Made by a program: the position numbers and the translations under genes. Under the pieces are notes generated by a model. That model did not search any database. It saw only the letters and a program-made list of their open reading frames with translations, and was not told the origin of the DNA. A stretch of 22,911 nucleotides of DNA from Geobacterales bacterium (GTDB lineage: Bacteria; Desulfobacterota; Desulfuromonadia; Geobacterales; DSM-12255). The DNA lies in assembly GCA_038206285.1 (NCBI GenBank), contig JBBRBA010000051.1, forward strand, positions 1 through 22,911, read 5' to 3'. Positions within the stretch are counted from its first letter, which is position 1. Each line of letters opens with the position of its first letter. Positions 1 through 22,911 of the stretch are shown one piece after another.

Positions 1-724
1 GATTATTGGTCAGGGTGACGTTGGTCAAAACAGGGCTGCTCCGCAGGCTGTAGATGCCGCCCCCTTCGAACCAGGCCTGATTGTTGCTGATGAGCAGATT
101 GGTCAGTATCGGGCTGGAACCCAGGTTATAGATGCCGCCGCCGGTGAGGGCGGCGCTATTGCCGGTAATGACGAGATTTGTCAGGGTGGGCGCGGCGTTG
201 ACGATGTAAAAACCGCCGCCGTCGCTGTTAACGCCCGCACCGTCGGCAGTGCCGCCGCTGATGGTGAAACGATCCAGCACCGCGCTGCTGTTGACGCCAT
301 TTGCCACCACCACATGCCAGGAGTTGTCACTTGTGTTCCCCGGCACGCCGATGTCGCCGCTTAAGGTAGTGACGTTGCCGCTGGCAGGCCGCTCGCTCCG
401 GGCGGCCTCACTGCCGCTGAAGCCGCCGTAGATGGCGACGCCGCTCTTCAGCACAAAGGAAACAGTCCGGTCAGCGCCGCTGGTCGGCCGATAGGTACCG
501 GCCTTGACCCAGATCTCGTCACCGGCGCCGGCCAGGGCAATGGCACTCTGCAGGTCGCAGGCGCTCCCCCAGGCGGCGCAGACGCCGCTGGCAAGGCCGC
601 CCGGCTGGGCAAAGCGGATGGTGGCAGCAGCCGGGGTGAAGGCGCCGCTCCAGAGGAGCAGGCAGAGAGCGGTCAGGAACAGTCCGGCAGCGCGGTGGGA
701 ATATTTTGTCTCGTTATGGTTCAT
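1..724 (-). CDS. Secreted right-handed parallel beta-helix repeat protein (Pmp-like / choice-of-anchor-Q-like). Only the N-terminal ~241 aa are present and the gene continues past the left edge of the window.
   Basis: I translated this myself. It is absent from the ORF track because no stop codon lies inside the window. ATG at 724-722 gives MNHNETKYSHRAAGLFLTALCLLLWSGAFTPAAA (signal peptide), then IRFAQPGG..CDLQSAIALAGAGDEIWVKAGTYRPT..FVLKSGVAIYGGF..TTLSGDIG..DNSWHVV..LDRFTISGG. Periodic repeats follow: GGGFYIV..SPTLTNLVITGN / GGGIYN..SPILTNLLISNN / GGGIYS..SPVLTNVTLTNN. A GAGG Shine-Dalgarno (SD) sequence lies about 10 nt upstream. Confidence 0.8.
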   Translation of the reverse strand, partial: MNHNETKYSHRAAGLFLTALCLLLWSGAFTPAAATIRFAQPGGLASGVCAAWGSACDLQSAIALAGAGDEIWVKAGTYRPTSGADRTVSFVLKSGVAIYGGFSGSEAARSERPASGNVTTLSGDIGVPGNTSDNSWHVVVANGVNSSAVLDRFTISGGTADGAGVNSDGGGFYIVNAAPTLTNLVITGNSAALTGGGIYNLGSSPILTNLLISNNQAWFEGGGIYSLRSSPVLTNVTLTNN

Positions 725-772: not shown

Positions 773-2353
773 TTACGGCGTCTTCCTGGTATCCGGGTTC
801 TTCAACATAAGCTCCTGCGGTTTTTTCTCCACCACCCCGGTTGTGTCGAAAAAAATCTGCACCCTGTCGTATTCCCGCCCGGTGGGGGCAGTCAATACAA
901 CCCAGCAGAAGTGGCTGCCGGTCAGGTCAACGCTGCTCCGCAGCGGAACGGCAAAGGTCACCTGCTCGAGCGGAGCTATTGTGCGTGCCTGGGGGGAGAC
1001 CGCTTCAATCCCTGGTTGACAACCGGTCAGAGCCACAATGTAATCCGCGGTGGTGCTGCCGACGTTTTCAATAACGACATTCATCACCCCCTGCCGCGTG
1101 AGTGAGTTGAACGGAGTGGCGCTCGCATCCTTGATCCAGCCGACCGCTTCGTAGGTGGTAGTGCCGGACTGGGCCGCATCCAGCTCAAGAGCCACCCGCG
1201 AGCTGACCGGCTCAGTTTCTACGACCTTGAGAGCCAGACCGGTCATCTCTGCCAGCCCGGACTTGAAGAGCTTCTTCCCCCGGAGCAGGTAGTCGGTTTC
1301 CGCCTCCGGGTTGGCGGTCAGCAGCGCCAGATCCGCCGCCAGGAGCTGCTTCAGCTGATTCCCCAGACAGGCGCCGGCCACGCTTTTATCCGCCCCGGCC
1401 AGCTGGCTGCGAAAGGCGCTGTAACCGGTCCCCACCTTGTCGCAGTCACTGCCGTCAACCGAGACCAGCTGCCGTGGCAGCAGCAGCGCGCTGTTCCAGT
1501 CGGGCTTGCCGTTGACCAGGGCTGTCGGGAGATAGACGATAGAGCCGGAAAGATCAGGTGGCGCCTGCCCAGCATCGCCATCAGCGGTTAAGGTGGCATG
1601 GACCGGGTGCGCAGATATGTCAAGCCATACGGGAATGTCCGGGGAGAGGGAGAATGTAAATAATGTGGCAGCTGCTTTAGTGACAGTGAAGTTGATGCGG
1701 TAGTCACGGCGGGGCGGGTCGATCTCGTAGCCACGGTAGCTGACCCCGCTCTGGCGCAGGCAGTGGCCGATGGAGAAGGAATCGGTCAGGGTGGACTGTG
1801 CCGCCAGCTCTTTCTCCCCCCGCCACCAGGCGGCCGGGTCGCTGCTGCTTTTCAGCTGCAGAAGGCTGCGGTTGCTGCAGAATCCCTGGGAATCGGCGAT
1901 CCTGTTGCCGCCGCCATCAAGCTGCCAGCCACAGGTGGGGGCAGCAGCAGCGGAACCGTCACTGCAGGCGGCTATGCCGGGACGGCTGTTATTCACCCTG
2001 ACCAGTTCCTCATAGGGGGCAAAGTCCACCGTCTGCAGGTAGCGGAGCGGATAGCTCCAGACCGGCCGGGTCTTGACAAGATTAATAGTGATCGGCTGTT
2101 CCAGCGTGATCTTCCCTGTCGAAGAAGTATCCATGTACGCCACATCCAGATTAGCGGTGAGGCCAAAGGCGATGTCCAGGCTAAGCCACAGCTTATTCTC
2201 GCAGCTAATGTCCGAATCCGTGCTGACACAATATTTGATGGTCGTACCGATTGGCTCGCCGGCGCTGGCCGGCCGCTCCATGACCGGCGCCAGGGCCAGC
2301 AGGAGCAGCAGCGTAAGACAGCGGCGAAAGGCTGATGTAGGTAACATATCCAT
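773..2353 (-). CDS. HAP2/GCS1-like (fusexin-like) secreted protein, paralog 1 (526 aa). Has a signal peptide and no TM anchor.
   Basis: Complete ORF with TAAGGAG directly upstream of the ATG. N-terminal signal peptide RRCLTLLLLLALAPV..ASA. Ten Cys in the mature part are conserved across the three paralogs. Motifs I recognise from eukaryotic HAP2: C-x8-C-ENK near the N-terminus, PVWSYPLRYL, CGWQLDGGGNRIADSQGFC, HCLRQSGVSYRGYE, and the HAP2-GCS1 (PF10699-type) signature LLLPRQLVSVDGSDCDKVGTGYSAFRSQ..ACLGNQLKQLLAADLALL. The C-terminal Ig-like domain reads VMNVVIENVGSTTADYIVALTGC...C..VL. Confidence 0.78.
   Translation of the reverse strand: MDMLPTSAFRRCLTLLLLLALAPVMERPASAGEPIGTTIKYCVSTDSDISCENKLWLSLDIAFGLTANLDVAYMDTSSTGKITLEQPITINLVKTRPVWSYPLRYLQTVDFAPYEELVRVNNSRPGIAACSDGSAAAAPTCGWQLDGGGNRIADSQGFCSNRSLLQLKSSSDPAAWWRGEKELAAQSTLTDSFSIGHCLRQSGVSYRGYEIDPPRRDYRINFTVTKAAATLFTFSLSPDIPVWLDISAHPVHATLTADGDAGQAPPDLSGSIVYLPTALVNGKPDWNSALLLPRQLVSVDGSDCDKVGTGYSAFRSQLAGADKSVAGACLGNQLKQLLAADLALLTANPEAETDYLLRGKKLFKSGLAEMTGLALKVVETEPVSSRVALELDAAQSGTTTYEAVGWIKDASATPFNSLTRQGVMNVVIENVGSTTADYIVALTGCQPGIEAVSPQARTIAPLEQVTFAVPLRSSVDLTGSHFCWVVLTAPTGREYDRVQIFFDTTGVVEKKPQELMLKNPDTRKTP
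848..1156 (-). repeat. Near-identical segment shared by paralog 1 and paralog 3 (encodes the Ig-like C-terminal domain). The partner copy is at 4064-4372.
   Basis: My hand alignment is ungapped at an offset of 3216 nt. It shows about 17 mismatches in 309 nt, including a perfectly identical 119-nt run (1008-1126 = 4224-4342). The corresponding region of paralog 2 is much more divergent. Confidence 0.85.
1621..1780 (-). repeat. Near-identical segment shared by paralog 1 and paralog 2 (central region). The partner copy is at 3230-3389.
   Basis: My hand alignment at an offset of 1609 nt shows 4 mismatches in 160 nt. Weaker but still high similarity continues to about 2068/3677. Paralog 3 is less similar here. 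Confidence 0.85.
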
Positions 2354-2363
2354 GGAAAACTCC

Positions 2364-3962
2364 TTACGGTGTCTTGACGGTGGTATCGCTGTTTTTCAGC
2401 ATCTTCTCCAGCGGCGTCAGGTCACTGACGGCACTTGGGGTGAAGGAGACCAGCTGCTGGGCATATGGCAGCCCGGACGGGGCAGTGAGCGTCACCAGAC
2501 AGCTGCGGCTGCCGCTCTGACCGTTCTCTGCCGTCAGGTTAAAGAGAAACCCGGCCTGGCCACCCGGCGCCAGAGTGCTGGCCTGGGGAGGGATGCTCCC
2601 GCGGATGCCGGGCGTACAGCCGCTCACCGTGACCAGGTAATCGGCAGTGAGCGGACCGCTGTTGCTGACGATCACCTTCAGTGAAGCATCCCGCGAGGTG
2701 ACGCCATGGGGGACTACGCTGGCCGAAACAATCACCCCGGTGGATTCGCTGCTGCTGGCGCCGACCTGAGCGGCGTCAATCTGCAGGCTGAGGCTGGAGT
2801 AGACCAGCTCCGGGGCGATGACGGTCAACTTCTGGCCGGTAAGGGTCGCCAGACCGCCCTTGAAGAGCTTTTTGCCACGCACCAGATAGTCGGTCTCGGC
2901 ATCCGGATTGGCCGCCAGCCGCGCCAGATCCGACGCCAGGAGCTGCTTCAGCTGATTCCCCAGGCAGGCGCCGGCCACGGATCTATCAGCCACCCCCGCC
3001 TGACTGCGAAAGGCGCTGTAGCCGCTCCCCACCCGGTCGCAGTCGCTGCCGTCCCGCGACACCAGCTGCCGTGGCACCAGCAGCAGGTTGTTCTGCCAGT
3101 CGAGCACCTTCGGGTCGTTGGCCGGGGCGCTCGGCACATAGAGGATAGAGCCGGAAAGATCGGCCGGCTGGCCGGCCGGCTGGTCTTCCCCGGTCAGGGT
3201 TGCCTTGATCGGGTGCGCAGACGATCTGTCAAGCCATACGGGAATGTCCGGGGAGACGGAGAATGTAAATAATGTGGCAGCTGCTTTAGTGCCAGTGAGG
3301 TTGATGCGGTAGTCACGGCGGGGCGGGTCGATCTCGTAGCCGCGGTAGCTGACCCCGCTCTGGCGCAGGCAGTGGCCGATGGAGAAGGAGGCTGCCTGAG
3401 TGGACTGCGCTCCCAGCTCCTTTTCTCCCCGCCACCAGGCGGCCGGGTCGCTGCTGCTTTTCAGCTGCAAAAGGTTACGGTTGCTGCAAAACCCCTGGGA
3501 GTCGGCGATCCTGTTGCCGCCGCCATCAAGCTGCCAGCCGCAGCTGGGGGGGGCAGCAGCAACGCCATCCACGCAGGCAGCAATGCCGGGGCTGCTGTTG
3601 AGCACTTTTGTCAGCTCCTCATAGGGGGCAAAATCCACGGTGTGCAGGTAGCGGAGCGGATAGCTCCAGACCGGTTGGGACTTGGCAATATTAATTGTGA
3701 ACGGCGCTTCCAGCGTGGTCTTCTCTCCCCCACCTTTTTGCGTGACCGTCTCCATGTACGCCACATCAAGATTAACGCTATCGCCGAACCCGACCCGCAT
3801 CTGCAGATTGACCTTATTCTCGCAGCTAATGTCCGAATCCGTGCTGACACAAGCGGTATGTACGCTTGTCAGCGGCGCCGGCGCCGCTGACAAGGGGAAC
3901 GGCAGGGCCAGCAGCAGAGCCAGCGGGCAGAGTAACGTAAAGAGACTATTCTTGTTATTCAT
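2364..3962 (-). CDS. HAP2/GCS1-like (fusexin-like) secreted protein, paralog 2 (532 aa). Has a signal peptide and no TM anchor.
   Basis: Complete ORF with an AAGGAG SD upstream of ATG 3962. Signal peptide LFTLLCPLALLLALPFPLSA. It carries the same motif set as paralog 1: CVSTDSDISCENK, PVWSYPLRYLHTVDFAPYEEL, CGWQLDGGGNRIADSQGFCSNR, AAWWRGEKE, HCLRQSGVSYRGYEIDPP, LLLVPRQLVSRDGSDCDRVGSGYSAFRSQ..ACLGNQLKQLLASDLARLA. Its C-terminal Ig-like domain is divergent (LKVIVSNSGPLTADYLVTVSGC...SC.VTL). Confidence 0.78.
   Translation of the reverse strand: MNNKNSLFTLLCPLALLLALPFPLSAAPAPLTSVHTACVSTDSDISCENKVNLQMRVGFGDSVNLDVAYMETVTQKGGGEKTTLEAPFTINIAKSQPVWSYPLRYLHTVDFAPYEELTKVLNSSPGIAACVDGVAAAPPSCGWQLDGGGNRIADSQGFCSNRNLLQLKSSSDPAAWWRGEKELGAQSTQAASFSIGHCLRQSGVSYRGYEIDPPRRDYRINLTGTKAAATLFTFSVSPDIPVWLDRSSAHPIKATLTGEDQPAGQPADLSGSILYVPSAPANDPKVLDWQNNLLLVPRQLVSRDGSDCDRVGSGYSAFRSQAGVADRSVAGACLGNQLKQLLASDLARLAANPDAETDYLVRGKKLFKGGLATLTGQKLTVIAPELVYSSLSLQIDAAQVGASSSESTGVIVSASVVPHGVTSRDASLKVIVSNSGPLTADYLVTVSGCTPGIRGSIPPQASTLAPGGQAGFLFNLTAENGQSGSRSCLVTLTAPSGLPYAQQLVSFTPSAVSDLTPLEKMLKNSDTTVKTP
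3230..3389 (-). repeat. Partner copy of the 1621-1780 repeat (paralog 2 central region).
   Basis: See 1621-1780. Confidence 0.85.
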
Positions 3963-3985
3963 TGGATACTCCTTGGCAGGCGCCG

Positions 3986-5602
3986 CTACGGCGCCTTGAC
4001 CGTGGTGTCGCTATTTTTCAGCAGCAGCTTGTCTGGCGCAGTTTCACTGACAGCGCTTGTGGCGAAGAAAATCTGCACCCTGTCGTATTCCCGCCCGGTG
4101 GGGGCAAGCAATACAACCCGGCAGAAGTGGCTGCCGGTCAGATCGACGCTGCTCCGCAGCGGAAAGGCAAAGGTCACCTGCTCGCGCGGAACGATAGTGC
4201 GCGCCTGGGGGGAGACCGCTTCGATCCCTGGTTGACAACCGGTCAGAGCCACAATGTAATCCGCGGTGGTGCTGCCGACGTTTTCAATAACGACATTCAT
4301 CACCCCCTGCCGCGTGAGTGAGTTGAACGGAGTGGCGCTCGCCTCCGGTATCCAGCCGACCGCTTCGTAGGTTAAAGCGTCGACCTTGGATGGAGCCATC
4401 TCCAGGGCGAGGGTGGAATAGGTGAGCTCCGGGCTTTTGAGCAGCAGCGACGGCTTCCCCAGAGTGGCCATCTCTGCCAGACCGGCCTTGAAGAGCTGCT
4501 TGCCGGAGAGGAGATAGTCGGTCTCGGCAGCGGGATTGGCGGCCAGCCGCGCCAGATCGGCCTGATGGAGCTGCTTCAGCTGGTTCCCCAGGCAGGCGCC
4601 GGCCGCACTCCTGTCCGCCACCCCCCCCTGCCGCCGGAACGCCCCGTAACTGACCCCCACCTTATTGCAGCCGCTGCCGTCGCTGGTCACCATGGTGCGC
4701 GGCACCAGCAGCAGGTTGTGCGTCCAGTCGATCACCTTGGGATCATCGGCAGGCTCAGACGGTACGTAGAGGATGGAGCCGGAGAGGTTCAGCGGCACCG
4801 GCTGCGGAGATTCCCGCCCCACCAGGGAGATCTGCAGCGGATAGGTGACGCTGGCCGGGTCATCACGATAAAAAGGCTTGTCAACAGAGAGCGCGAAGGG
4901 GCTGAGCAGGGTCTCGCCGCTGTAGACGCCGCCGCTGATGTCGAACTCCCGCACCGGCGGATCGATCTCGTAGCCACGGTACTTGACCCCGGACTGCCGC
5001 AGGCAGTGGCCGATGGAGAAGGAGTCGGTCAGGGTGGACTGCGCCCCCAGCTCTTTCTCCCCCCGCCACCAGGCATCGCCCGGCCCACAGTTCTGCAGCT
5101 GTAACAGGTCGCGGTTGCTGCAGAATCCCTGGGAATCGGCAATGGGACTGCCCCCGCCATTAAGCTGCCAGCCGCAGGTGGGGGCGACAGCGTCCGAAGC
5201 ATCAACGCAAGAGGCAATGCCGGGGCGGCTGTTGACCACCTTGACCAGCTCCTCTTTTGGCGCATAATCCACGGTGTGCAGGTAGCGGAGCGGATAGACC
5301 CAGGAGGGCATGCTCTTGCTTACTTTGAGGGTTTCAGCCACGCTACCGCGACCGGCGGCGCCGCTGTAGTTAGCCATCAGGACAGCAGTGACCCCATTGC
5401 TCACCCCGACATTCACTGCCTGCCGGGGGGTACAGACCGTCCTGGTGACGGCCGAATACGACTGCTGGACGCACTTGGTGAAGCTGTTGCTGCCGATGAA
5501 CAGCGCGGCATCTGCCGGACAAGGGGGGCAGAGTGCGGCTGTCAGCAGCAGTAACAGGAGAGCAACGAAATGTGCCCTGGTTGTGATGTCAATAATCTTC
5601 AT
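3986..5602 (-). CDS. HAP2/GCS1-like (fusexin-like) secreted protein, paralog 3 (538 aa). Has a signal peptide and no TM anchor.
   Basis: Complete ORF with a GGAG SD upstream of ATG 5602. Signal peptide HFVALLLLLLTAAL. The N-terminal ~95 aa are divergent. After that: WVYPLRYLHTVDYAPKEEL, CGWQLNGGGSPIADSQGFCSNR, GDAWWRGEKE, HCLRQSGVKYRGYEIDPP, LLLVPRTMVTSDGSGCNKVGVSYGAFRRQ..ACLGNQLKQLHQADLARLA. The Ig-like C-terminal domain is nearly identical to that of paralog 1. Confidence 0.78.
   Translation of the reverse strand: MKIIDITTRAHFVALLLLLLTAALCPPCPADAALFIGSNSFTKCVQQSYSAVTRTVCTPRQAVNVGVSNGVTAVLMANYSGAAGRGSVAETLKVSKSMPSWVYPLRYLHTVDYAPKEELVKVVNSRPGIASCVDASDAVAPTCGWQLNGGGSPIADSQGFCSNRDLLQLQNCGPGDAWWRGEKELGAQSTLTDSFSIGHCLRQSGVKYRGYEIDPPVREFDISGGVYSGETLLSPFALSVDKPFYRDDPASVTYPLQISLVGRESPQPVPLNLSGSILYVPSEPADDPKVIDWTHNLLLVPRTMVTSDGSGCNKVGVSYGAFRRQGGVADRSAAGACLGNQLKQLHQADLARLAANPAAETDYLLSGKQLFKAGLAEMATLGKPSLLLKSPELTYSTLALEMAPSKVDALTYEAVGWIPEASATPFNSLTRQGVMNVVIENVGSTTADYIVALTGCQPGIEAVSPQARTIVPREQVTFAFPLRSSVDLTGSHFCRVVLLAPTGREYDRVQIFFATSAVSETAPDKLLLKNSDTTVKAP
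4064..4372 (-). repeat. Partner copy of the 848-1156 repeat (paralog 3 C-terminal domain).
   Basis: See 848-1156. Confidence 0.85.
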
Positions 5603-5624
5603 GGTGAACTCCGTTGTATGAGCT

Positions 5625-5831
5625 TCATAGCTGTTCCTTTGACGTTTTCCGGCGCTGCCGTTTGCCTGCGCCCTGGTTCAACACTGCCGCCAGTTCATTC
5701 AGATCGGTAAAAGGGGTCCGACTACTGCTGCCGTCCAGCATCTCCACCTGACCGGTGAGCTTGTGCGGATTTTCGCTGTCGTGGCGGTAGATTCTTACAA
5801 GGTAACTTTGTGCGGTCGATAGTTCGGTCAT
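5625..5831 (-). CDS. Small hypothetical protein (68 aa from ATG 5831; the ORF track extends it to a GTG at 5870).
   Basis: The ORF sits 22 nt upstream of paralog 3 on the same strand. Sequence: MTELSTAQSYLVRIYRHDSENPHKLTGQVEMLDGSSSRTPFTDLNELAAVL followed by a basic tail GKRQRRKTSKEQL. No convincing SD precedes either candidate start. I do not recognise a named family. Coding status rests on length, position and the lack of an alternative. Confidence 0.45.
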   Translation of the reverse strand: MTELSTAQSYLVRIYRHDSENPHKLTGQVEMLDGSSSRTPFTDLNELAAVLNQGAGKRQRRKTSKEQL

Positions 5832-5853
5832 GATGACATGGTGGCACACGCCT

Positions 5854-5874
5854 ACCCACAGATGACCCACAGAT
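5854..5874 (-). promoter_or_regulatory. Tandem 10-bp direct repeat with 11-bp phasing. Candidate regulator-binding site upstream of the small ORF and fusexin-like block.
   Basis: The plus strand reads acccacagat-g-acccacagat (5854-5863 and 5865-5874). On the minus strand this is ATCTGTGGGT-C-ATCTGTGGGT. It lies between the regulator stop (5943) and ATG 5831. Confidence 0.3.
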
Positions 5875-5942
5875 TGGAAAATAACTAAAGAATGGAATAT
5901 GTATTGATCAGTTTTGCGCGGGGAAGAGCGGCAAATGCGGCA

Positions 5943-8900
5943 TTATTGCTGTTGAATGATGGCGGTATAGACGGCGGTGGTTTCCGGGGAGGGCTCGATG
6001 CCGAGTTCGCTCTGAAGCAGGCTGCGGCAGCGTTTGTAGCTCCTGACGGCGTCGGCGTGGTTGCCGAGCCGCTTTTGACAGATCATCAGGCGGCGGTAAA
6101 ACTCTTCGGCCAGGCTGTCGGTCTCGATCCCTTTCGTGTACAGCTCAGAGGCCTTTTCCCACTCACCGACCCGTTCATTCTGACGGCCCGCTGCAAGAAC
6201 GATGCGCAGCAGCCGGTTCTTAAGGGTTTCACGACTGGAGAGTACCCACGGCAAGGCGGAATCAGCAGGGAGGAAAGCTCCTTTGTTCAGACCGAGTGCC
6301 TTTTCGCACGACAGCACGGACTGGTCGTCCGCGAGCGCTTGCGCCCGGTCGAAAATATGTCGGAGCGCCAGGCTGTCCACCCAGCAATAAAGGGGATTGA
6401 TGGTCAGCTGGCGAGTCCGGCAGGTGACGACGTCATCCCTGCCGAGCAGCCGCCGCAGCCGGCTCAGGGTGGTTTCGAAGGACTTGCGGGCCTGGTCGCC
6501 ATCGGCATCGGGCCAAAGGACATCGGTCAGTCGCTCCTCGGGCACGTCCCGGCCGCCGAAGGCGATCAGGCTTTTTAGCAGTTCCAGCGGCTTTTTCTGC
6601 TCCTTGCCGCTAAAAGGCAGCGGCTCGCTGTCCCTGATGATCTCGAAACGGCCAAGGGTATAGACCTTGACCGGATAGGGCCATTCCTCCAGCAGCGCGG
6701 CAGACGGTTCGACACCGCTGTCTGTCACTGGCGGCGCCAGGTGAAGCTTCCTGATCAGCCCCTTCACGTACTCCGGCTCGATCCGTTCCTCCAGCGCCGT
6801 GGCACAGAGAAAGCCCATGACCGCTGGCTGATAGAACTCCAGATGGAGATAGCCGTGCCGCCGCCCCAGCCCGAACCCGCGGTGCAGCGCCAGCAAACCT
6901 TCGCTTCGCATGCCGTCCTGCAACAGAAACCAGGCTTCGAGCAGCAGCGAGTACCACTCCATGACCTGGCTCTTCATGCTCAGGCTGATGCGGTGGGCCG
7001 TCCGCACGAGCGTGGTCGCCTCGCCGGTGCGCCCCTGCATGAAAGCGGCCTGGGCCATGCCGATATGCCATAATGCGCGGTAGTAAGGGGTTCCCATCCG
7101 TTCGATCTGCCCGGAGACGGCCTCCAGGTGCCCGGCGGCACGCGACGGGTTGTTGCAAAGGAGCGCCAGCCAGGAGGCATTGACGTGATAGAAAAAGACG
7201 TTCAGCGCATTCTCCATGCCGAGCAGGGAGCGCAGCTGCTGTTGCAGCGCCAGTTCAGCGTTCGCCAGGTTGCCGGGCGCCAGCTCCGCCGCCGCCTTGA
7301 AGCTCCACAACAGGGAGTCGTAAATATGGACGCCGCTGTTCGCGGAGATCTCCAGCCCTTCGGTGAGGACCTGCAACGCCTCCTGATACCCGGCGGTAAT
7401 CCAGCAATGGATACCTTTCATCAGCTTGATGCGGATGAGCGCAAAGGGGGACGGCTGGCGATGACGAACCTCGACCGCCGCTCGTTCGAGCAGCAGAGCA
7501 TTCTTGTCGTACTCTCCCCGCCAGAGATAATAGATGCTCATACAGAAGACCGTATCCATCTGGATATCAAAGGACGGTTTCAGTTGCAGCAGGCCGGTTA
7601 CTCGCTGCAGCCACAACTCTACCCTGTGCGGCTGATCGGTTTTTCTCAATGTGAGTGAGAGGAGCATTCGCGATGAGACGATCAGTTCGGTGTCCAGGGT
7701 TGGAAATGATGGAAAGCTGCGCTGCAGTTCGTCAAAATCCACCAGGCAGTCATCCAGAGGCTTCCACTCGTCCCCGAAGACATGGGTGTCGACGATGGCC
7801 GCCCACGCAAGATAGCAGCCGGAGGGATCGCCATCCGCCCTGAAAGCTGTCAGGGCCTTTTCCAGAAAACTCCTGCTACGGGGGAGGTCAAGCGGAAACG
7901 AACTGATACCGTTCCAGTACAAAAGCCAGGGGTCATGATCCAGAATTTCGCCGGGGATACAGGCGAGCCATTCTGCCAGGGTCCGGCTCCTCCCCTGGAG
8001 GAGCAGTTCCCTTCCGTGACAGGCCACCATCCTGGCCAGGCTGTCATGGTCTCCGGATTTTGCGTACAAAAGCGCTGCGTCGTCCCGCTGCCCCGACTGT
8101 TCCAGCAGCAGTGCGGCATCTCTTTGCAGCCGCGCCACTCTATCAGCACTGAATTCGCTCACAGCCCTGCTCAGAAGAAATTCCCTGAAGAGAGGATGGT
8201 AGCGATAGTCCTGCCCGCTGCCGGACAGTTTTTCGGTAAAATAATGATGGCGGTTCAGGCTGGCGAGGATATCCCCGGCAGCTGCGAGTCCGGTCAGCTT
8301 TTCGGCCAGAGAAACGCTGAGCATGGGGAGCATGGCGGTTTTCAGCAGAAATTCCTGAATATCTTTCTCTTTGTGATTGAACAGCTCTCCGGCAAAATAA
8401 TCGAAGACCCTGTCTGAAGCCAAGTCCGCGAAAGATGTGATCCCGTCCCATTCCAACCCTGCCCGCTCCTGCATCAGGATTATCCCGGCAACCCACCCTT
8501 CGGTCCGCGCATGCATCCGTACGACCAGTTCCGGGTCAGGAAGCGGTCGGCGGCGCGCCATCAGTTCGCTGGATTCGTCGACGGTGAAGCGGAGATCATT
8601 ATTGTCGAGGGTTGCAATTTTGCCGTTGGACTGCAACCGCGCCAGTGAGGGGGGCGGCAGCTCCCGGCTCAGGACTACAACATGAATGTCGGCGCAGATC
8701 GAAGTCAGTGCGGTGGCGATCATGTCGTGGAACGCGGCCTCGGTCGGTACGTCCTGGTAGTTGTCAAGGACGATGACAAACCCGGGCAATCTCCCGTCTG
8801 TTGCCGGGGAAGGCTGGAGGCGACTGCAAAGTATTTCGAAATAACGACGGGTAAAGGTTGGGACGCCGGCAAGATATTCCGGAGTCAGAAGCGGCAGCGG

Positions 8901-9182
8901 TTTCCTGTGGCGCGGTGCGGCAAGCTTTGCTGCCAGCCCCATGTAGTAGAAAAAGGTGGCGAGGTCTGCATCCCCTTCATCACATTGATACCAGATACAG
9001 GGAAGCTCCTGCGCATCAAGGTAACTGGCGACAAGGGTCGATTTGCCCGAACCGCCAGGCGCAGTTATCCAGGTAACCGGATGCTGTGCCGCTGAATCAA
9101 GCAGTGCAAACAGTCGTTCCCTTTGGACCGGCTTCGTCAGAGTCGGTCGCGCTAATTTTGCCAATGCCGCTTTAGTAGCCAT
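5943..9182 (-). CDS. Large STAND-type signal-transduction ATPase regulator (1079 aa). It has a MalT-like N-terminal P-loop NTPase, a helical/TPR-like middle region, and a C-terminal OmpR/PhoB-type winged helix plus BTAD (SARP-type) module.
   Basis: N-terminus LAKLARPTLTKPVQRERLFALLD..VTWITAPGGSGKSTLV (Walker A). FVIVLDNYQDV (Walker B-like). A long helical repeat region follows. The last ~242 aa (about 5946-6671) read VKVYTLGRFEIIRDSEPLPFSGKEQKKPLELLKSLIAFGGRDVPEERLTDVLWPD..ARKSFETTLSRLRRLLG (wHTH), then ELYTKGIETDSLAEEFYRRLMICQKRLGNHADAVRSYKRCRSLLQSELGIEPSPET (BTAD). Confidence 0.85.
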   Translation of the reverse strand: MATKAALAKLARPTLTKPVQRERLFALLDSAAQHPVTWITAPGGSGKSTLVASYLDAQELPCIWYQCDEGDADLATFFYYMGLAAKLAAPRHRKPLPLLTPEYLAGVPTFTRRYFEILCSRLQPSPATDGRLPGFVIVLDNYQDVPTEAAFHDMIATALTSICADIHVVVLSRELPPPSLARLQSNGKIATLDNNDLRFTVDESSELMARRRPLPDPELVVRMHARTEGWVAGIILMQERAGLEWDGITSFADLASDRVFDYFAGELFNHKEKDIQEFLLKTAMLPMLSVSLAEKLTGLAAAGDILASLNRHHYFTEKLSGSGQDYRYHPLFREFLLSRAVSEFSADRVARLQRDAALLLEQSGQRDDAALLYAKSGDHDSLARMVACHGRELLLQGRSRTLAEWLACIPGEILDHDPWLLYWNGISSFPLDLPRSRSFLEKALTAFRADGDPSGCYLAWAAIVDTHVFGDEWKPLDDCLVDFDELQRSFPSFPTLDTELIVSSRMLLSLTLRKTDQPHRVELWLQRVTGLLQLKPSFDIQMDTVFCMSIYYLWRGEYDKNALLLERAAVEVRHRQPSPFALIRIKLMKGIHCWITAGYQEALQVLTEGLEISANSGVHIYDSLLWSFKAAAELAPGNLANAELALQQQLRSLLGMENALNVFFYHVNASWLALLCNNPSRAAGHLEAVSGQIERMGTPYYRALWHIGMAQAAFMQGRTGEATTLVRTAHRISLSMKSQVMEWYSLLLEAWFLLQDGMRSEGLLALHRGFGLGRRHGYLHLEFYQPAVMGFLCATALEERIEPEYVKGLIRKLHLAPPVTDSGVEPSAALLEEWPYPVKVYTLGRFEIIRDSEPLPFSGKEQKKPLELLKSLIAFGGRDVPEERLTDVLWPDADGDQARKSFETTLSRLRRLLGRDDVVTCRTRQLTINPLYCWVDSLALRHIFDRAQALADDQSVLSCEKALGLNKGAFLPADSALPWVLSSRETLKNRLLRIVLAAGRQNERVGEWEKASELYTKGIETDSLAEEFYRRLMICQKRLGNHADAVRSYKRCRSLLQSELGIEPSPETTAVYTAIIQQQ

Positions 9183-19305: not shown

Positions 19306-20715
19306 TTACTGGTCAACGGTAATCGGCCAGGGTTCAGATATCCGGATCTCGTCAATGTCTGTTTCCCCCCAGAAAACATTGATCAGATAAGCCTGTTGCC
19401 CCGGTTTACGCTGATATTTGTCCGGGTCTGCGATCCAGGTTATGGACGGATTACGGTAATAGGCTCTCATTGCCTGCTGAACAAAAGCGCGTCCTGTCGG
19501 TCGATTATTCACATAAATAAAAGAGTCCGGCGGGAAAGCCGGTACGATTTTACCCAGGGCGTTAAGATACTTTTCTACCGGCGCAGCTTCTTCCTTCCAC
19601 TCACGTCCGCGGTACTGGATATTTACATAATTAATCCAGCAAAAAATGCCGACGGATGCAGCGGCAACAACCCAAAAGAATTTGCCGCTTAACCGCTCCT
19701 GCAGATTGGTCAGGAGGGCAGCATAAACCAGAGCCGGTCCGATCGAGACGATATAGAGATAGCGACTGATGGAATTGGCAAAGTTTTCCGGCGAGAATTG
19801 CCCCAAAGATGTCAGGCTTTGTGGCAAAAATGTCATTATGACCCAGCAAAAGGCAAAAACGAGAATCTTTCTGTCTTTGACCAGGAGCAGGCTTGCAGGA
19901 ACTGCCAGGGCGGCGAAATAGGCCAATGGGTTGATGCTGCGCGCTATCCCTGTTGGCGGGAGGAAAAATGCACTTAATCCGCCGGCAAGAGAGTACACGG
20001 GGCGGATTGCGTAGAATTTGGCCAGCTCAGGCGGAGCCAGAGCCAACCAGCTGAATACCAATTTATGCAGAAGCAGATAGCAGCAGATAATTGCGCAATA
20101 AGGGAGCATGCGCAGAAATATCGTCTTCAATCGTTCTCCCGCGGGGAAAAGATATTCGATCACCAGGATGATGCCAGGCAAAGACGCTGCCTCTTCTTTG
20201 CTGAACATGGCAAACAGATAAAAAAAGAGTGACATGAACAAGTATTTCCGCTGCTTGTTCTCGCGAAAGCGTAGATATGCCAATAATGTCAGTAAATAAA
20301 AACAGAGACAGAGCAAGGAATTACTGGCACATTTCCATAATACGGCATCAGCGCCGACACTGCTTAAGACAAAAAAAAGGCCGGCAGTAAATGCCAGTGT
20401 CCGGTTCTTGAACAGGTTAAGGATGAAGTAGAAGAAAATGACGGCGTTGACTGCATAGAGCGTAATGTTGAACAGGTTGTAGCCGACAGGGTTGAAGCCG
20501 AACATATGGTAGAGCGGGACCCAGATAACATTGCTGACCACCCGGAGTGTGTTGTAACCAAGCAGCGTCTGTTTCAGTCCCTGGAAGATGTTTTCAATAT
20601 AACGGAAATCGTCAAAACAGAAATAATTTTCAATAGAGCGGCCAAACAGCAGAAACGATATCCCGAGAGCCACGAAAGGGAATAGCGGTATTTTCTTCAG
20701 AATCGAACCGTTCAC
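19306..20715 (-). CDS. Polytopic membrane protein. Putative GT-C-type glycosyltransferase (PMT_2/TMTC-like N-terminal loop) with a C-terminal soluble domain.
   Basis: 469 aa from GTG 20715, with an AGGAGC SD 7 nt upstream. About 11-12 hydrophobic helices. The first-loop motif ENYFCFDDFRYIENIFQG resembles the DD motif of the 15896-17653 protein. The non-TM C-terminal ~110 aa have no family I recognise. Confidence 0.55.
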   Translation of the reverse strand: MNGSILKKIPLFPFVALGISFLLFGRSIENYFCFDDFRYIENIFQGLKQTLLGYNTLRVVSNVIWVPLYHMFGFNPVGYNLFNITLYAVNAVIFFYFILNLFKNRTLAFTAGLFFVLSSVGADAVLWKCASNSLLCLCFYLLTLLAYLRFRENKQRKYLFMSLFFYLFAMFSKEEAASLPGIILVIEYLFPAGERLKTIFLRMLPYCAIICCYLLLHKLVFSWLALAPPELAKFYAIRPVYSLAGGLSAFFLPPTGIARSINPLAYFAALAVPASLLLVKDRKILVFAFCWVIMTFLPQSLTSLGQFSPENFANSISRYLYIVSIGPALVYAALLTNLQERLSGKFFWVVAAASVGIFCWINYVNIQYRGREWKEEAAPVEKYLNALGKIVPAFPPDSFIYVNNRPTGRAFVQQAMRAYYRNPSITWIADPDKYQRKPGQQAYLINVFWGETDIDEIRISEPWPITVDQ

Positions 20716-20730
20716 GTTAGCTGCTCCTGA

Positions 20731-21756
20731 TTATTTGCTGTATCTGCCCGGTGTAAGCAGCAGCGCAGTATCTTCGTTCCATGCCGTCAGTAACTCGATC
20801 TCCTTCTCTCCCACGAGCCCCATTGCAACCAGCTTTTCATAGCATTTCAGCAAGTTCACTGCCAGGTGTTCTTCTCCCGGCACCAGCTCAAGCCGCGCCA
20901 ATTCCCGACAGATGGCAGAATTGTGGAGATAGCCCGGGATCTCTTCGCTGAAATCCTGCAGCAGATTATGTTCGTTGCGCTCCTGCCAGACGGTCGGCGC
21001 ATGAAAATGAATATGCCAGCCATTGAGCCAACAGATTCTCTGGGCAACAAAACTGCGCCAGATGTCGGTCATACGGAAACTGCAGAATGCCGGCAGGTAG
21101 AGGAGCGGGAAAGCCTGTCTAAACCAGGTGGTATTCTGACTGTTGAAGGGGCACCAGCTTTCGGCTCCCAGGGCAATACTGGCCATCTTGTCAAAACTCT
21201 GGGGAAGCGGAGAGGTCAGGCGGTAAACAGCGTCGACATCAGGATTGACATCTGCCAGCCCTTGCTGGATCGGGCAGAATAGCTCCTGTGCGCCAGCAGT
21301 CACTTCAATCAACGGCTTCTGTAGAAACTCGAGGGGGAAACCGCGCGGCCAGATCCTGTTATCGGTAAAAAATCGATAAATATTGACCCAGTCGGCGCCG
21401 ATTACCGGCACCGCCTGTTTGACAGGCTTGCGTGGCGACCAGAAGCCGGCCCTGGCAAAGTTATCATCATCAGTTTCAATGATGATTTCCATGCCAGCGG
21501 CCATTGCTTGCAGGTAGCCAAGGTTCTTCCGCGCGTAGTGTCGCTCGGGCATGGAGCGGGCTAATGCAAAACTCATGGTTTGCTGCCGTTCAAGCGACCA
21601 GAAATCACACTGCTCCAGGGCAAAATCCTGCGGCGACTTGCTGTCGCCAATCAGGATGAAACGGCAACCATGGCGAGCAGATTGCTCGGCATAATTTTTC
21701 AAGGCGGCATTTGGCGGTGAAATGGAGGTTATGACCAAGGCTGTGTCGGTTAGCAT
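20731..21756 (-). CDS. Cytoplasmic protein, putative glycosyltransferase. Possibly STELLO/DUF288-like, which is a low-certainty family call.
   Basis: 341 aa with no signal peptide or TM. The N-terminus TALVITSISPPNAALKNYAEQS..GCRFILIGDSKSPQDF resembles, from memory, the start of STELLO-type GT-like proteins. It sits between a GT2 gene and a GT-C gene on the same strand with 10- and 15-nt gaps. Confidence 0.4.
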   Translation of the reverse strand: MLTDTALVITSISPPNAALKNYAEQSARHGCRFILIGDSKSPQDFALEQCDFWSLERQQTMSFALARSMPERHYARKNLGYLQAMAAGMEIIIETDDDNFARAGFWSPRKPVKQAVPVIGADWVNIYRFFTDNRIWPRGFPLEFLQKPLIEVTAGAQELFCPIQQGLADVNPDVDAVYRLTSPLPQSFDKMASIALGAESWCPFNSQNTTWFRQAFPLLYLPAFCSFRMTDIWRSFVAQRICWLNGWHIHFHAPTVWQERNEHNLLQDFSEEIPGYLHNSAICRELARLELVPGEEHLAVNLLKCYEKLVAMGLVGEKEIELLTAWNEDTALLLTPGRYSK

Positions 21757-21766
21757 TGTTTACCTT

Positions 21767-22504
21767 TCAATATATGATCTGGGCGCGACCGGTAATGCGC
21801 ATCCAGGCATAATGCAAGAGAACTTGCAGTGAGTTTTTGATAGCGTTTTTCGAAACCCTGGGAGATGGTGCCTGATAATGAATCGGTATTTCCGCAAAAC
21901 GGTGCTTCCGCAAGAGATAGCGGATCTCGGTCTGGTAAAAATGGGCTTTAGAGAGCAGCGGGAAGTTGAGGAACTTGCCGACGACATTTGAGTGAAACCC
22001 CTGGAATCCTGACGTCATGTCATACATGTTACTGTTCAATAAAGTGTTGGCCAAAAATGTCCCGAACCGGGAAAGAAGGCGCCGCCGCAGCGGTGAATCT
22101 GACATGGAGCCGCCATTAATGAATCTGCTGCCAAAAGCACATTCATTCCCCTCGTTCAAAACCCGCAGGAACATCGGCAGTGCGCGTGGATCGTGGGACA
22201 TGCCTGCATCCATTTCCACTATTATGTCATGTCCATTATTGAATGCTTCCCGATAACCGCGCAGATAAGCATCAACAACATTTCTGTTCTCTGGCGCCCA
22301 GATGGTCTTGAACCGGCTGTCCTTTGCCGAAATCTGATGACAGAGGTGAAGTGTATTGTCTGTTGAAGCGTTATCAACTACAAAATATACGGTGCCTCCC
22401 TGCAACCGGTTCAGGATGGTAACAAGTGCCGTGACAAAAGTTTCGAAATCCTGCTCTTCGTTGGCCATGGGAACAACTACTGCCCAATCATTATCGTAAT
22501 ACAT
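21767..22504 (-). CDS. Family 2 glycosyltransferase, polyprenyl-phosphate sugar synthase type (Dpm1/Ppm1-like).
   Basis: 245 aa. Contains WAVVVPMANEEQDF, YFVVDNASTDNT, DIIVEMDAGMSHDPRALP (the DxD..H.P region typical of dolichol/polyprenol-phosphate mannose synthases) and RFINGGS. Its ATG overlaps the upstream methyltransferase stop by 1 nt (TAATG). Confidence 0.8.
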   Translation of the reverse strand: MYYDNDWAVVVPMANEEQDFETFVTALVTILNRLQGGTVYFVVDNASTDNTLHLCHQISAKDSRFKTIWAPENRNVVDAYLRGYREAFNNGHDIIVEMDAGMSHDPRALPMFLRVLNEGNECAFGSRFINGGSMSDSPLRRRLLSRFGTFLANTLLNSNMYDMTSGFQGFHSNVVGKFLNFPLLSKAHFYQTEIRYLLRKHRFAEIPIHYQAPSPRVSKNAIKNSLQVLLHYAWMRITGRAQIIY

Positions 22505-22911
22505 TATCTGCCCCTAATCAGGAATACCGTTTCCTGTCCGCCAGACCCTTCGATTCGCTCAATATCAACAGCGCCAAACCCGGCAGCCGTGAGCCAGTTT
22601 GCTAACTCGGCCGCCTCAAATCCGAGCCACTGATCAGCCAGTTGGTCCCGCGCCGTCTCCCGTTCGTGCCGCGCCAGGTCTGCCAGCAGCAGCGTGCCGC
22701 CTGGTGCCAGTACCCGGCGGATCTCGGCCAGCACTGCGGGCGGGTTGGCGGCGTGATGAAGAACCATATTGGCGACAACAGCGCCAACAGAGGCATCAGG
22801 AAGAGGGAGATGGCTCATCTCGCCGAGGCGGAGTTCAACCGTGTCGCTGCCGTTCCCGCTGACCCGGCGACGGGCCTCCTCCAGCATTGCCGGGGAGTGA
22901 TCAACACCGAT
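22504..22911 (-). CDS. Class I SAM-dependent methyltransferase (Methyltransf_11-like). Only the C-terminal part is present and the gene begins beyond the right edge.
   Basis: The frame stays open to position 22911. My translation of the edge gives IGVDHSPAMLEEARRRV, the post-motif-I GxDxSxxML pattern. Then DASVGAVVANMVLHH..PPAVLAEIRRVLAPGGTLLLAD follows. The ORF-track Met at 22887 is internal. Confidence 0.8.
   Translation of the reverse strand: MGVDHSPAMLEEARRRVSGNGSDTVELRLGEMSHLPLPDASVGAVVANMVLHHAANPPAVLAEIRRVLAPGGTLLLADLARHERETARDQLADQWLGFEAAELANWLTAAGFGAVDIERIEGSGGQETVFLIRGR

Follow-up and report, generated by a model that had tools for sequence, protein, structure and literature searches.

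Do bacteria encode HAP2/GCS1, the ancestral gamete fusogen of eukaryotes, which is found in plants, algae, and protists? The question is raised by a 22,911-nucleotide stretch of DNA (hereafter, the window; contig JBBRBA010000051.1 of assembly GCA_038206285.1) assigned to a Geobacterales bacterium, in which a first reading of the letters alone (hereafter, the original prediction) had recognized three tandem genes for HAP2-like ectodomains of the class II fusexin type. The origin of HAP2 bears on the evolution of sex and on eukaryogenesis. The prior prokaryotic precedent, the archaeal Fsx1 family (PMC9259645), is more distant from HAP2.

Three tandem genes encode HAP2-family ectodomains

The triplet lies on the reverse strand, with gaps of 10–23 bp between its genes. 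Transcribed first is HAP2-like protein 3 (P0003; positions 3986–5602, 538 amino acids), followed by its paralogs P0002 (2364–3962, 532 amino acids, 63% identity with P0001) and, as the last gene, P0001 (773–2353, 526 amino acids). The three open reading frames of about 530 codons are thus present as originally described. So are the features of bacterial expression and export that had been proposed for them: a Shine-Dalgarno GGAG stands 8–12 nt ahead of each ATG, and a hydrophobic signal segment occupies the N-terminus of all three proteins. A single contig from the Logan assemblies joins positions 3178 and 4552, leaving out 1373 bp between paralogs 2 and 3; the two are similar, and the skip is probably an artefact of recombination or assembly between them.

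All three proteins match the Pfam family PF10699 (HAP2-GCS1, a model of 515 positions), P0001 with an E-value of 2.7e-66 (model positions 2–479), P0002 with 3e-58 (2–474), and P0003 with 2e-60 (48–471); on these profile scores, chance resemblance is ruled out. A phmmer search of the PDB with P0001 aligned HAP2 structures from Chlamydomonas (5mf1, 6dbs, 6e18), Trypanosoma cruzi (5ow4), Arabidopsis (5ow3), and Cyanidioschyzon (7s0k) at E-values of 1e-25 to 2e-16. The alignments place CGWQLDGGGNRIADSQGFC opposite CGWFSQ-GGVRVADSQGFC, and DGSDCDKVGTGYSAFRSQ...ACLGNQLKQLLAADLA opposite DGLACDKVGTGFSAFRYQ...ACLSGQLKDLWEADLA; the pairs of bacterial and eukaryotic motifs quoted in the original prediction recur in them verbatim. 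A profile built from 15 bacterial and metagenomic homologs (A1) matched HAP2 crystal structures over the full length (E 7e-60 to 4e-39) and reached an E-value of only 0.15 against archaeal Fusexin1 (7p4l).

The predicted structure has the anticipated class II ectodomain arrangement, with a β-sandwich domain I, an elongated domain II bearing apical loops, and an Ig-like domain III. Residues 32–513 of the model align along the three-domain HAP2 ectodomain with no domain left over, and the arrangement of the domains departs from that of the HAP2 post-fusion trimer (root-mean-square deviation 12–14 Å). A structure search of the ESM Atlas returned the eukaryotic HAP2 cluster only, and a search of the same resource by features gave no informative relatives. 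Because the PF10699 matches are strong, the profile matches to HAP2 crystal structures are full-length, and the bacterial context is validated by independent assemblies (see below), the evidence supports the identification of the three genes as encoding bacterial HAP2/GCS1 class II fusexin ectodomain proteins. None of the outcomes named beforehand as refuting the original prediction was observed.

The genes reside in a bacterial genome

Beyond the triplet, the contig carries a SARP regulator gene, the core genes frr, pyrH, tsf, and rpsB, then LptF and LptG, and genes for a TIG-domain protein, a TPR protein, S-adenosylhomocysteine hydrolase, and glycosyltransferases. The triplet had been described as contiguous with frr-pyrH-tsf-rpsB; the two do share the contig, but the 1079-amino-acid SARP gene (5943–9182, reverse strand) intervenes. 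The nearest relatives of the encoded EF-Ts belong to Geobacteraceae, Geobacterales, Geobacter, and Trichlorobacter (82–89% identity), and the host is therefore a member of the Geobacterales (Desulfobacterota). By its gene content, with LptF and LptG, it is a diderm with lipopolysaccharide. The metagenome-assembled genome (MAG) comprises 3.08 Mb and is 81% complete with 1% contamination.

The stretch occurs in one sediment metagenome run; no RNA run is among those listed. Logan contigs from the sediment run cover the window with 0 mismatches and at uniform depth, and separate pieces span the junction of the third HAP2-like gene with the SARP gene and that of the SARP gene with frr-pyrH. Because independent contigs bridge both junctions, a chimeric assembly is ruled out, and contamination or misassembly is rejected with it, given the core genes on the same contig.

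The G+C content of the HAP2 region is 0.62, compared with 0.54 genome-wide, which ranks it among the highest 0.6% of 5-kb windows. Neither 40 close relatives (7 of them congeneric) nor 400 further genomes of the phylum carry PF10699. On the basis of the elevated G+C content and of these absences, we regard the triplet region as an accessory, horizontally acquired cassette. A viral origin was considered and rejected: no homologs occur on IMG/VR contigs, and there were no matches to PHROGs and no tblastn matches to phages or plasmids.

At least two prokaryotic lineages of HAP2-like proteins

A scan of GTDB recovered homologs in MAGs of four phyla (Desulfobacterota, Nitrospirota, Planctomycetota, and Pseudomonadota). 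They include loci from a Nitrospira (L001), a planctomycete (L002), the deltaproteobacterial Olavius worm symbiont Delta1 (L003), and a gammaproteobacterial MAG (L004), all with bacterial neighbors such as IS110, MreB, ETF, RtcB, and a Ser/Thr kinase with PP2C. On a further contig, from ENA (L008, 41966 bp), a single HAP2-like gene has HigB and HepT/Pol-beta toxin-antitoxin modules and a TRAP transporter as its neighbors, a setting that hints at a mobile island.

The full-library HMMER search yielded 1206 representatives. The top ~47 are proteins of ~520–560 amino acids with signal peptides, no C-terminal transmembrane (TM) segment, and a C-terminal motif of the YSWELLQKNEGS type. Lower matches have a C-terminal TM segment and include a Malawimonas HAP2-like protein and Balamuthia GCS1. 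In a maximum-likelihood tree, whose root was not fixed, 47 prokaryotic sequences without a TM segment form a clade apart from the eukaryotic HAP2 clade (Shimodaira–Hasegawa-like approximate likelihood ratio support 98), and a small group without a TM segment, including the gammaproteobacterial locus, branches at the base of the eukaryotic clade. A single clade of all prokaryotic homologs is rejected by the approximately unbiased (AU) test (p 1.7e-88); there are therefore at least two prokaryotic HAP2-like lineages. Members of the second anchorless lineage are P0043, P0049, P0088, and L004:3321-4895, and fusions in this lineage involve TSP3 repeats and DUF2341/MopE copper-binding motifs. Judged from the sequence comparisons, the prokaryotic clade without a TM segment is closer to HAP2 than Fsx1 is.

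The original prediction had held that no bacterial HAP2-like locus had been characterized before, and we found no description of bacterial HAP2 homologs in the literature searched; metagenomic proteins annotated with PF10699 do exist in databases. The 2022 description of Fsx1 mentions, for MAGs with a bacterial assignment, no more than a few genes of that family (PMC9259645).

Conserved loops on secreted, anchorless proteins

We aligned the bacterial clade with eukaryotic TM-type HAP2 proteins. Neither group varies in the columns of P0001 residues E115 and R178. In Chlamydomonas HAP2, the pair R185-E126 organizes the fusion loops (PMC6170185, PMC5332557), and by alignment R178 and E115 are most likely its counterpart. 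Hydrophobic residues of the cd-loop (L164, L167, W177, L183, and F193) are conserved in the bacterial clade, and helices are predicted at residues 164–168 and 178–183, within the cd-loop region of P0001. This region is shorter and more conserved in the bacterial proteins than in the eukaryotic ones and is free of the large eukaryotic insertions. Ten cysteine positions conserved in the bacterial clade coincide with conserved cysteines of eukaryotic HAP2.

No C-terminal hydrophobic or TM segment was found in the window proteins or in the ~47 members of the prokaryotic clade, and P0001–P0003 do not have the stem, single TM anchor, and cytoplasmic tail of the HAP2 family. Nor was a recognized signal for C-terminal sorting or anchoring found in them, NCBIfam offering nothing beyond a sub-threshold match to PACE-CTERM (E 0.018), and no lipobox was seen in their sequences. 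As read from their sequences, the three are complete, soluble, secreted proteins without stem or TM segment. Directly after domain III, most bacterial HAP2-like proteins conserve the YSWELLQKNEGS-type tail, which could be a stem analog docking on domain II or a secretion signal.

Several bacterial homologs are fused to domains of bacterial surface proteins: a TIG domain with a collagen triple-helix stalk at the N-terminus, bacterial Ig-like domains at the C-terminus, or TSP3 repeats. In L003, P0026, P0028, and P0029, a TIG domain is followed by a collagen triple-helix stalk and then by the HAP2-like domain, an architecture that suggests display as surface trimers with the stalk N-terminal. Taken together, the data support a HAP2-family variant that is soluble, secreted, and often mounted on surface-protein scaffolds, a diverse and poorly described lineage.

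Neighbors of the triplet

Downstream of P0001, at positions 2–724 (reverse strand), a gene for a large secreted repeat protein runs past the contig end, so that only its N-terminal part is present. That part shares 65% identity over 241 amino acids (E 3e-82) with the protein encoded at 5236–8469 of a metagenomic contig, L009. This contig likewise carries three tandem HAP2 genes, the third of them 53% identical to P0001, and the protein in question, encoded directly downstream of that triplet, is a secreted protein of 1078 amino acids with a LamG/ConA-like lectin domain, GLUG motifs, and an M26-N region. Positional orthology between the two triplets is partial. The pairing of partner and HAP2-like genes is conserved across the two loci, though not necessarily specific.

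Immediately upstream of the triplet, a small open reading frame with a GTG start (5625–5870, reverse strand, 81 amino acids) has a homolog upstream of the L009 triplet (L009 3-215, forward strand), and the frame measures 70–81 amino acids across both loci. It matched no Pfam family and may encode a leader or regulatory peptide. The interval from the SARP gene to the cassette holds a direct repeat with an 11-bp period, CTGTGGGT(n3)CTGTGGGT (5854–5874, reverse strand), a possible SARP operator. The SARP gene itself encodes an AfsR-like transcriptional regulator (Pfam BTAD, AAA, and TPR; NCBIfam SARP AfsR); it lies upstream of the triplet in the same orientation, is GC-elevated, and is possibly both a part of the island and the regulator of the cassette. 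Antisense within it, a frame of 228 codons (5892–6578, forward strand) has no Pfam match and is probably spurious. Farther away, at 19306–22887, a cluster of glycosyltransferase genes (PMT_2, STELLO-like, GT2) with a methyltransferase gene shows no link to the cassette; its products could glycosylate surface proteins.

What the proteins might do

Our preferred reading, held tentatively and at a little less than an even chance, is that the acquired cassette supplies three soluble, secreted HAP2-family proteins that engage membranes as trimeric modules. Exported by the Sec pathway, as their signal peptides indicate, the proteins would fold in the periplasm with formation of disulfides and would work outside the inner membrane. 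There the hydrophobic cd-loop would enter a target membrane, which we expect because the loop residues are conserved and so is the Arg-Glu pair that organizes the HAP2 fusion loops. Insertion would be followed by trimerization on the target membrane, as in class II ectodomains generally. Where the co-encoded adhesin draws membranes together, the inserted trimers could bind, perturb, or fuse them. Possible targets are the producer's own outer membranes or vesicles and the membranes of other cells.

Several points weigh against this reading. It is difficult to see how proteins with no anchor would fuse two membranes by the classic hairpin mechanism. The column of Q379, part of the HAP2 signature, holds glutamine in only 40% of bacterial-clade sequences. 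At least three further cysteines conserved in eukaryotic HAP2 are absent from the bacterial proteins, so the ten conserved cysteines of the original prediction were counted correctly and align with eukaryotic ones but do not make up the full eukaryotic set. Finally, the partner protein belongs to a generic, widespread family of repeat adhesins, with ~20 paralogs in one Planctomycetota MAG, so its pairing with the HAP2-like proteins may be unspecific. Because the whole clade is without a C-terminal anchor and the stalk fusions are N-terminal, a geometry unlike that of the classic hairpin, the bacterial proteins are probably not canonical TM-anchored fusogens of the gamete type.

Alternatively, the fold was co-opted as an adhesive or structural module that engages no membrane, a possibility we consider real though doubtful. 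The HAP2-like domain would then sit, as a rigid trimeric head, atop a surface stalk of collagen, Ig-like, or TSP3 repeats, serving cell-cell or substrate adhesion or carbohydrate binding, much as C1q-like or BclA-like heads might on their collagen stalks. Secretion without an anchor fits this explanation, as do the recurrent fusions to surface-adhesin domains, N-terminal collagen triple-helix stalks among them, and a co-encoded lectin/GLUG protein from a common repeat-adhesin family. It is at odds with the conservation of the hydrophobic cd-loop and the Arg-Glu pair, which is higher in the bacterial proteins than in the eukaryotic ones, because a surface for membrane insertion would be expected to drift under purely adhesive use.

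A further possibility is a genuine bacterial fusogen, acting like HAP2 in gametes or Fsx1 in haloarchaea, for which a partner would provide the anchor in place of a TM segment of its own; it might merge outer membranes between cells, serve a mating-like exchange, or fuse vesicles with cells. This is favored by a complete class II fold in which the fusion-loop hallmarks are conserved, by the prokaryotic precedent of Fsx1 (PMC9259645), and by a diderm host with periplasm and outer membrane (LptFG). We nevertheless consider it unlikely: TM segment and stem are missing across the bacterial clade, the N-terminal stalk fusions have the wrong geometry for hairpin fusion, and the patchy distribution speaks against a core mating system.

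Less likely again is a membrane-attacking effector or toxin that would insert into and disrupt the membranes of competing microbes, protist predators, or hosts, targeted by its lectin partner. Such a role would suit soluble, secreted proteins with a conserved hydrophobic apical loop and a lectin partner, and the homolog L008 sits among toxin-antitoxin genes; against it, no pore-forming family or toxin hallmarks were found, and class II proteins form trimers, not pores, on membranes. That the contig is eukaryotic and reached a bacterial MAG by misbinning or misassembly, an idea suggested by the metagenomic origin and the resemblance to eukaryotic HAP2, is scarcely credible in view of frr-pyrH-tsf-rpsB and LptFG on the same contig, the mismatch-free Logan contigs across its junctions, the Shine-Dalgarno sites and tight operon spacing, the homologs on other bacterial contigs with bacterial neighbors and domain fusions, and a distinct prokaryotic clade instead of short branches inside a eukaryotic lineage.

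The prokaryotic HAP2-like proteins open to testing the questions of whether a bacterial class II protein that has no anchor can bind or fuse membranes, how fusexins have moved between domains of life, and whether fusion loops have been co-opted for adhesion. The HAP2-like genes are small, and their soluble, expressible products lend themselves to structural and liposome work. A wider proposal, which we think rather improbable, is that the diverse bacterial HAP2-family fusexins, with their two or more lineages by the AU test, are secreted membrane fusogens or remodelers anchored via partner surface proteins, whose task might be, for instance, the fusion of partner or target cells with outer membranes or vesicles; bacteria could then be a reservoir or source of eukaryotic gamete fusion.

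Comparison with known systems

Compared with eukaryotic HAP2/GCS1 (Chlamydomonas, Arabidopsis, Cyanidioschyzon, Trypanosoma cruzi, and Plasmodium), the bacterial proteins are without stem, TM segment, and cytoplasmic tail; they are soluble, secreted from a diderm, and often fused to bacterial surface domains, and they differ in their shorter, more conserved cd-loop and in the three missing eukaryote-conserved cysteines. Membership in the archaeal Fsx1 family (Moi et al., 2022, PMC9259645; PDB 7p4l) is rejected by sequence and by structure: the bacterial proteins are far nearer to HAP2 on both counts (E 7e-60 as opposed to 0.15), they have none of the multiple C-terminal TM segments of Fsx1, and they appear to lack its extra domain IV, as judged from an overall alignment of the model. 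Viral class II fusion proteins and EFF-1/AFF-1 are TM-anchored and much more distant, with no sequence homology detected.

Collagen-stalked trimeric surface proteins are known in bacteria, for example the BclA-type exosporium proteins. Some bacterial HAP2-like relatives resemble these in their N-terminal collagen triple-helix stalks, to which TIG domains are joined, whereas the head they carry is not C1q/TNF-like but has the fold of a class II fusexin.

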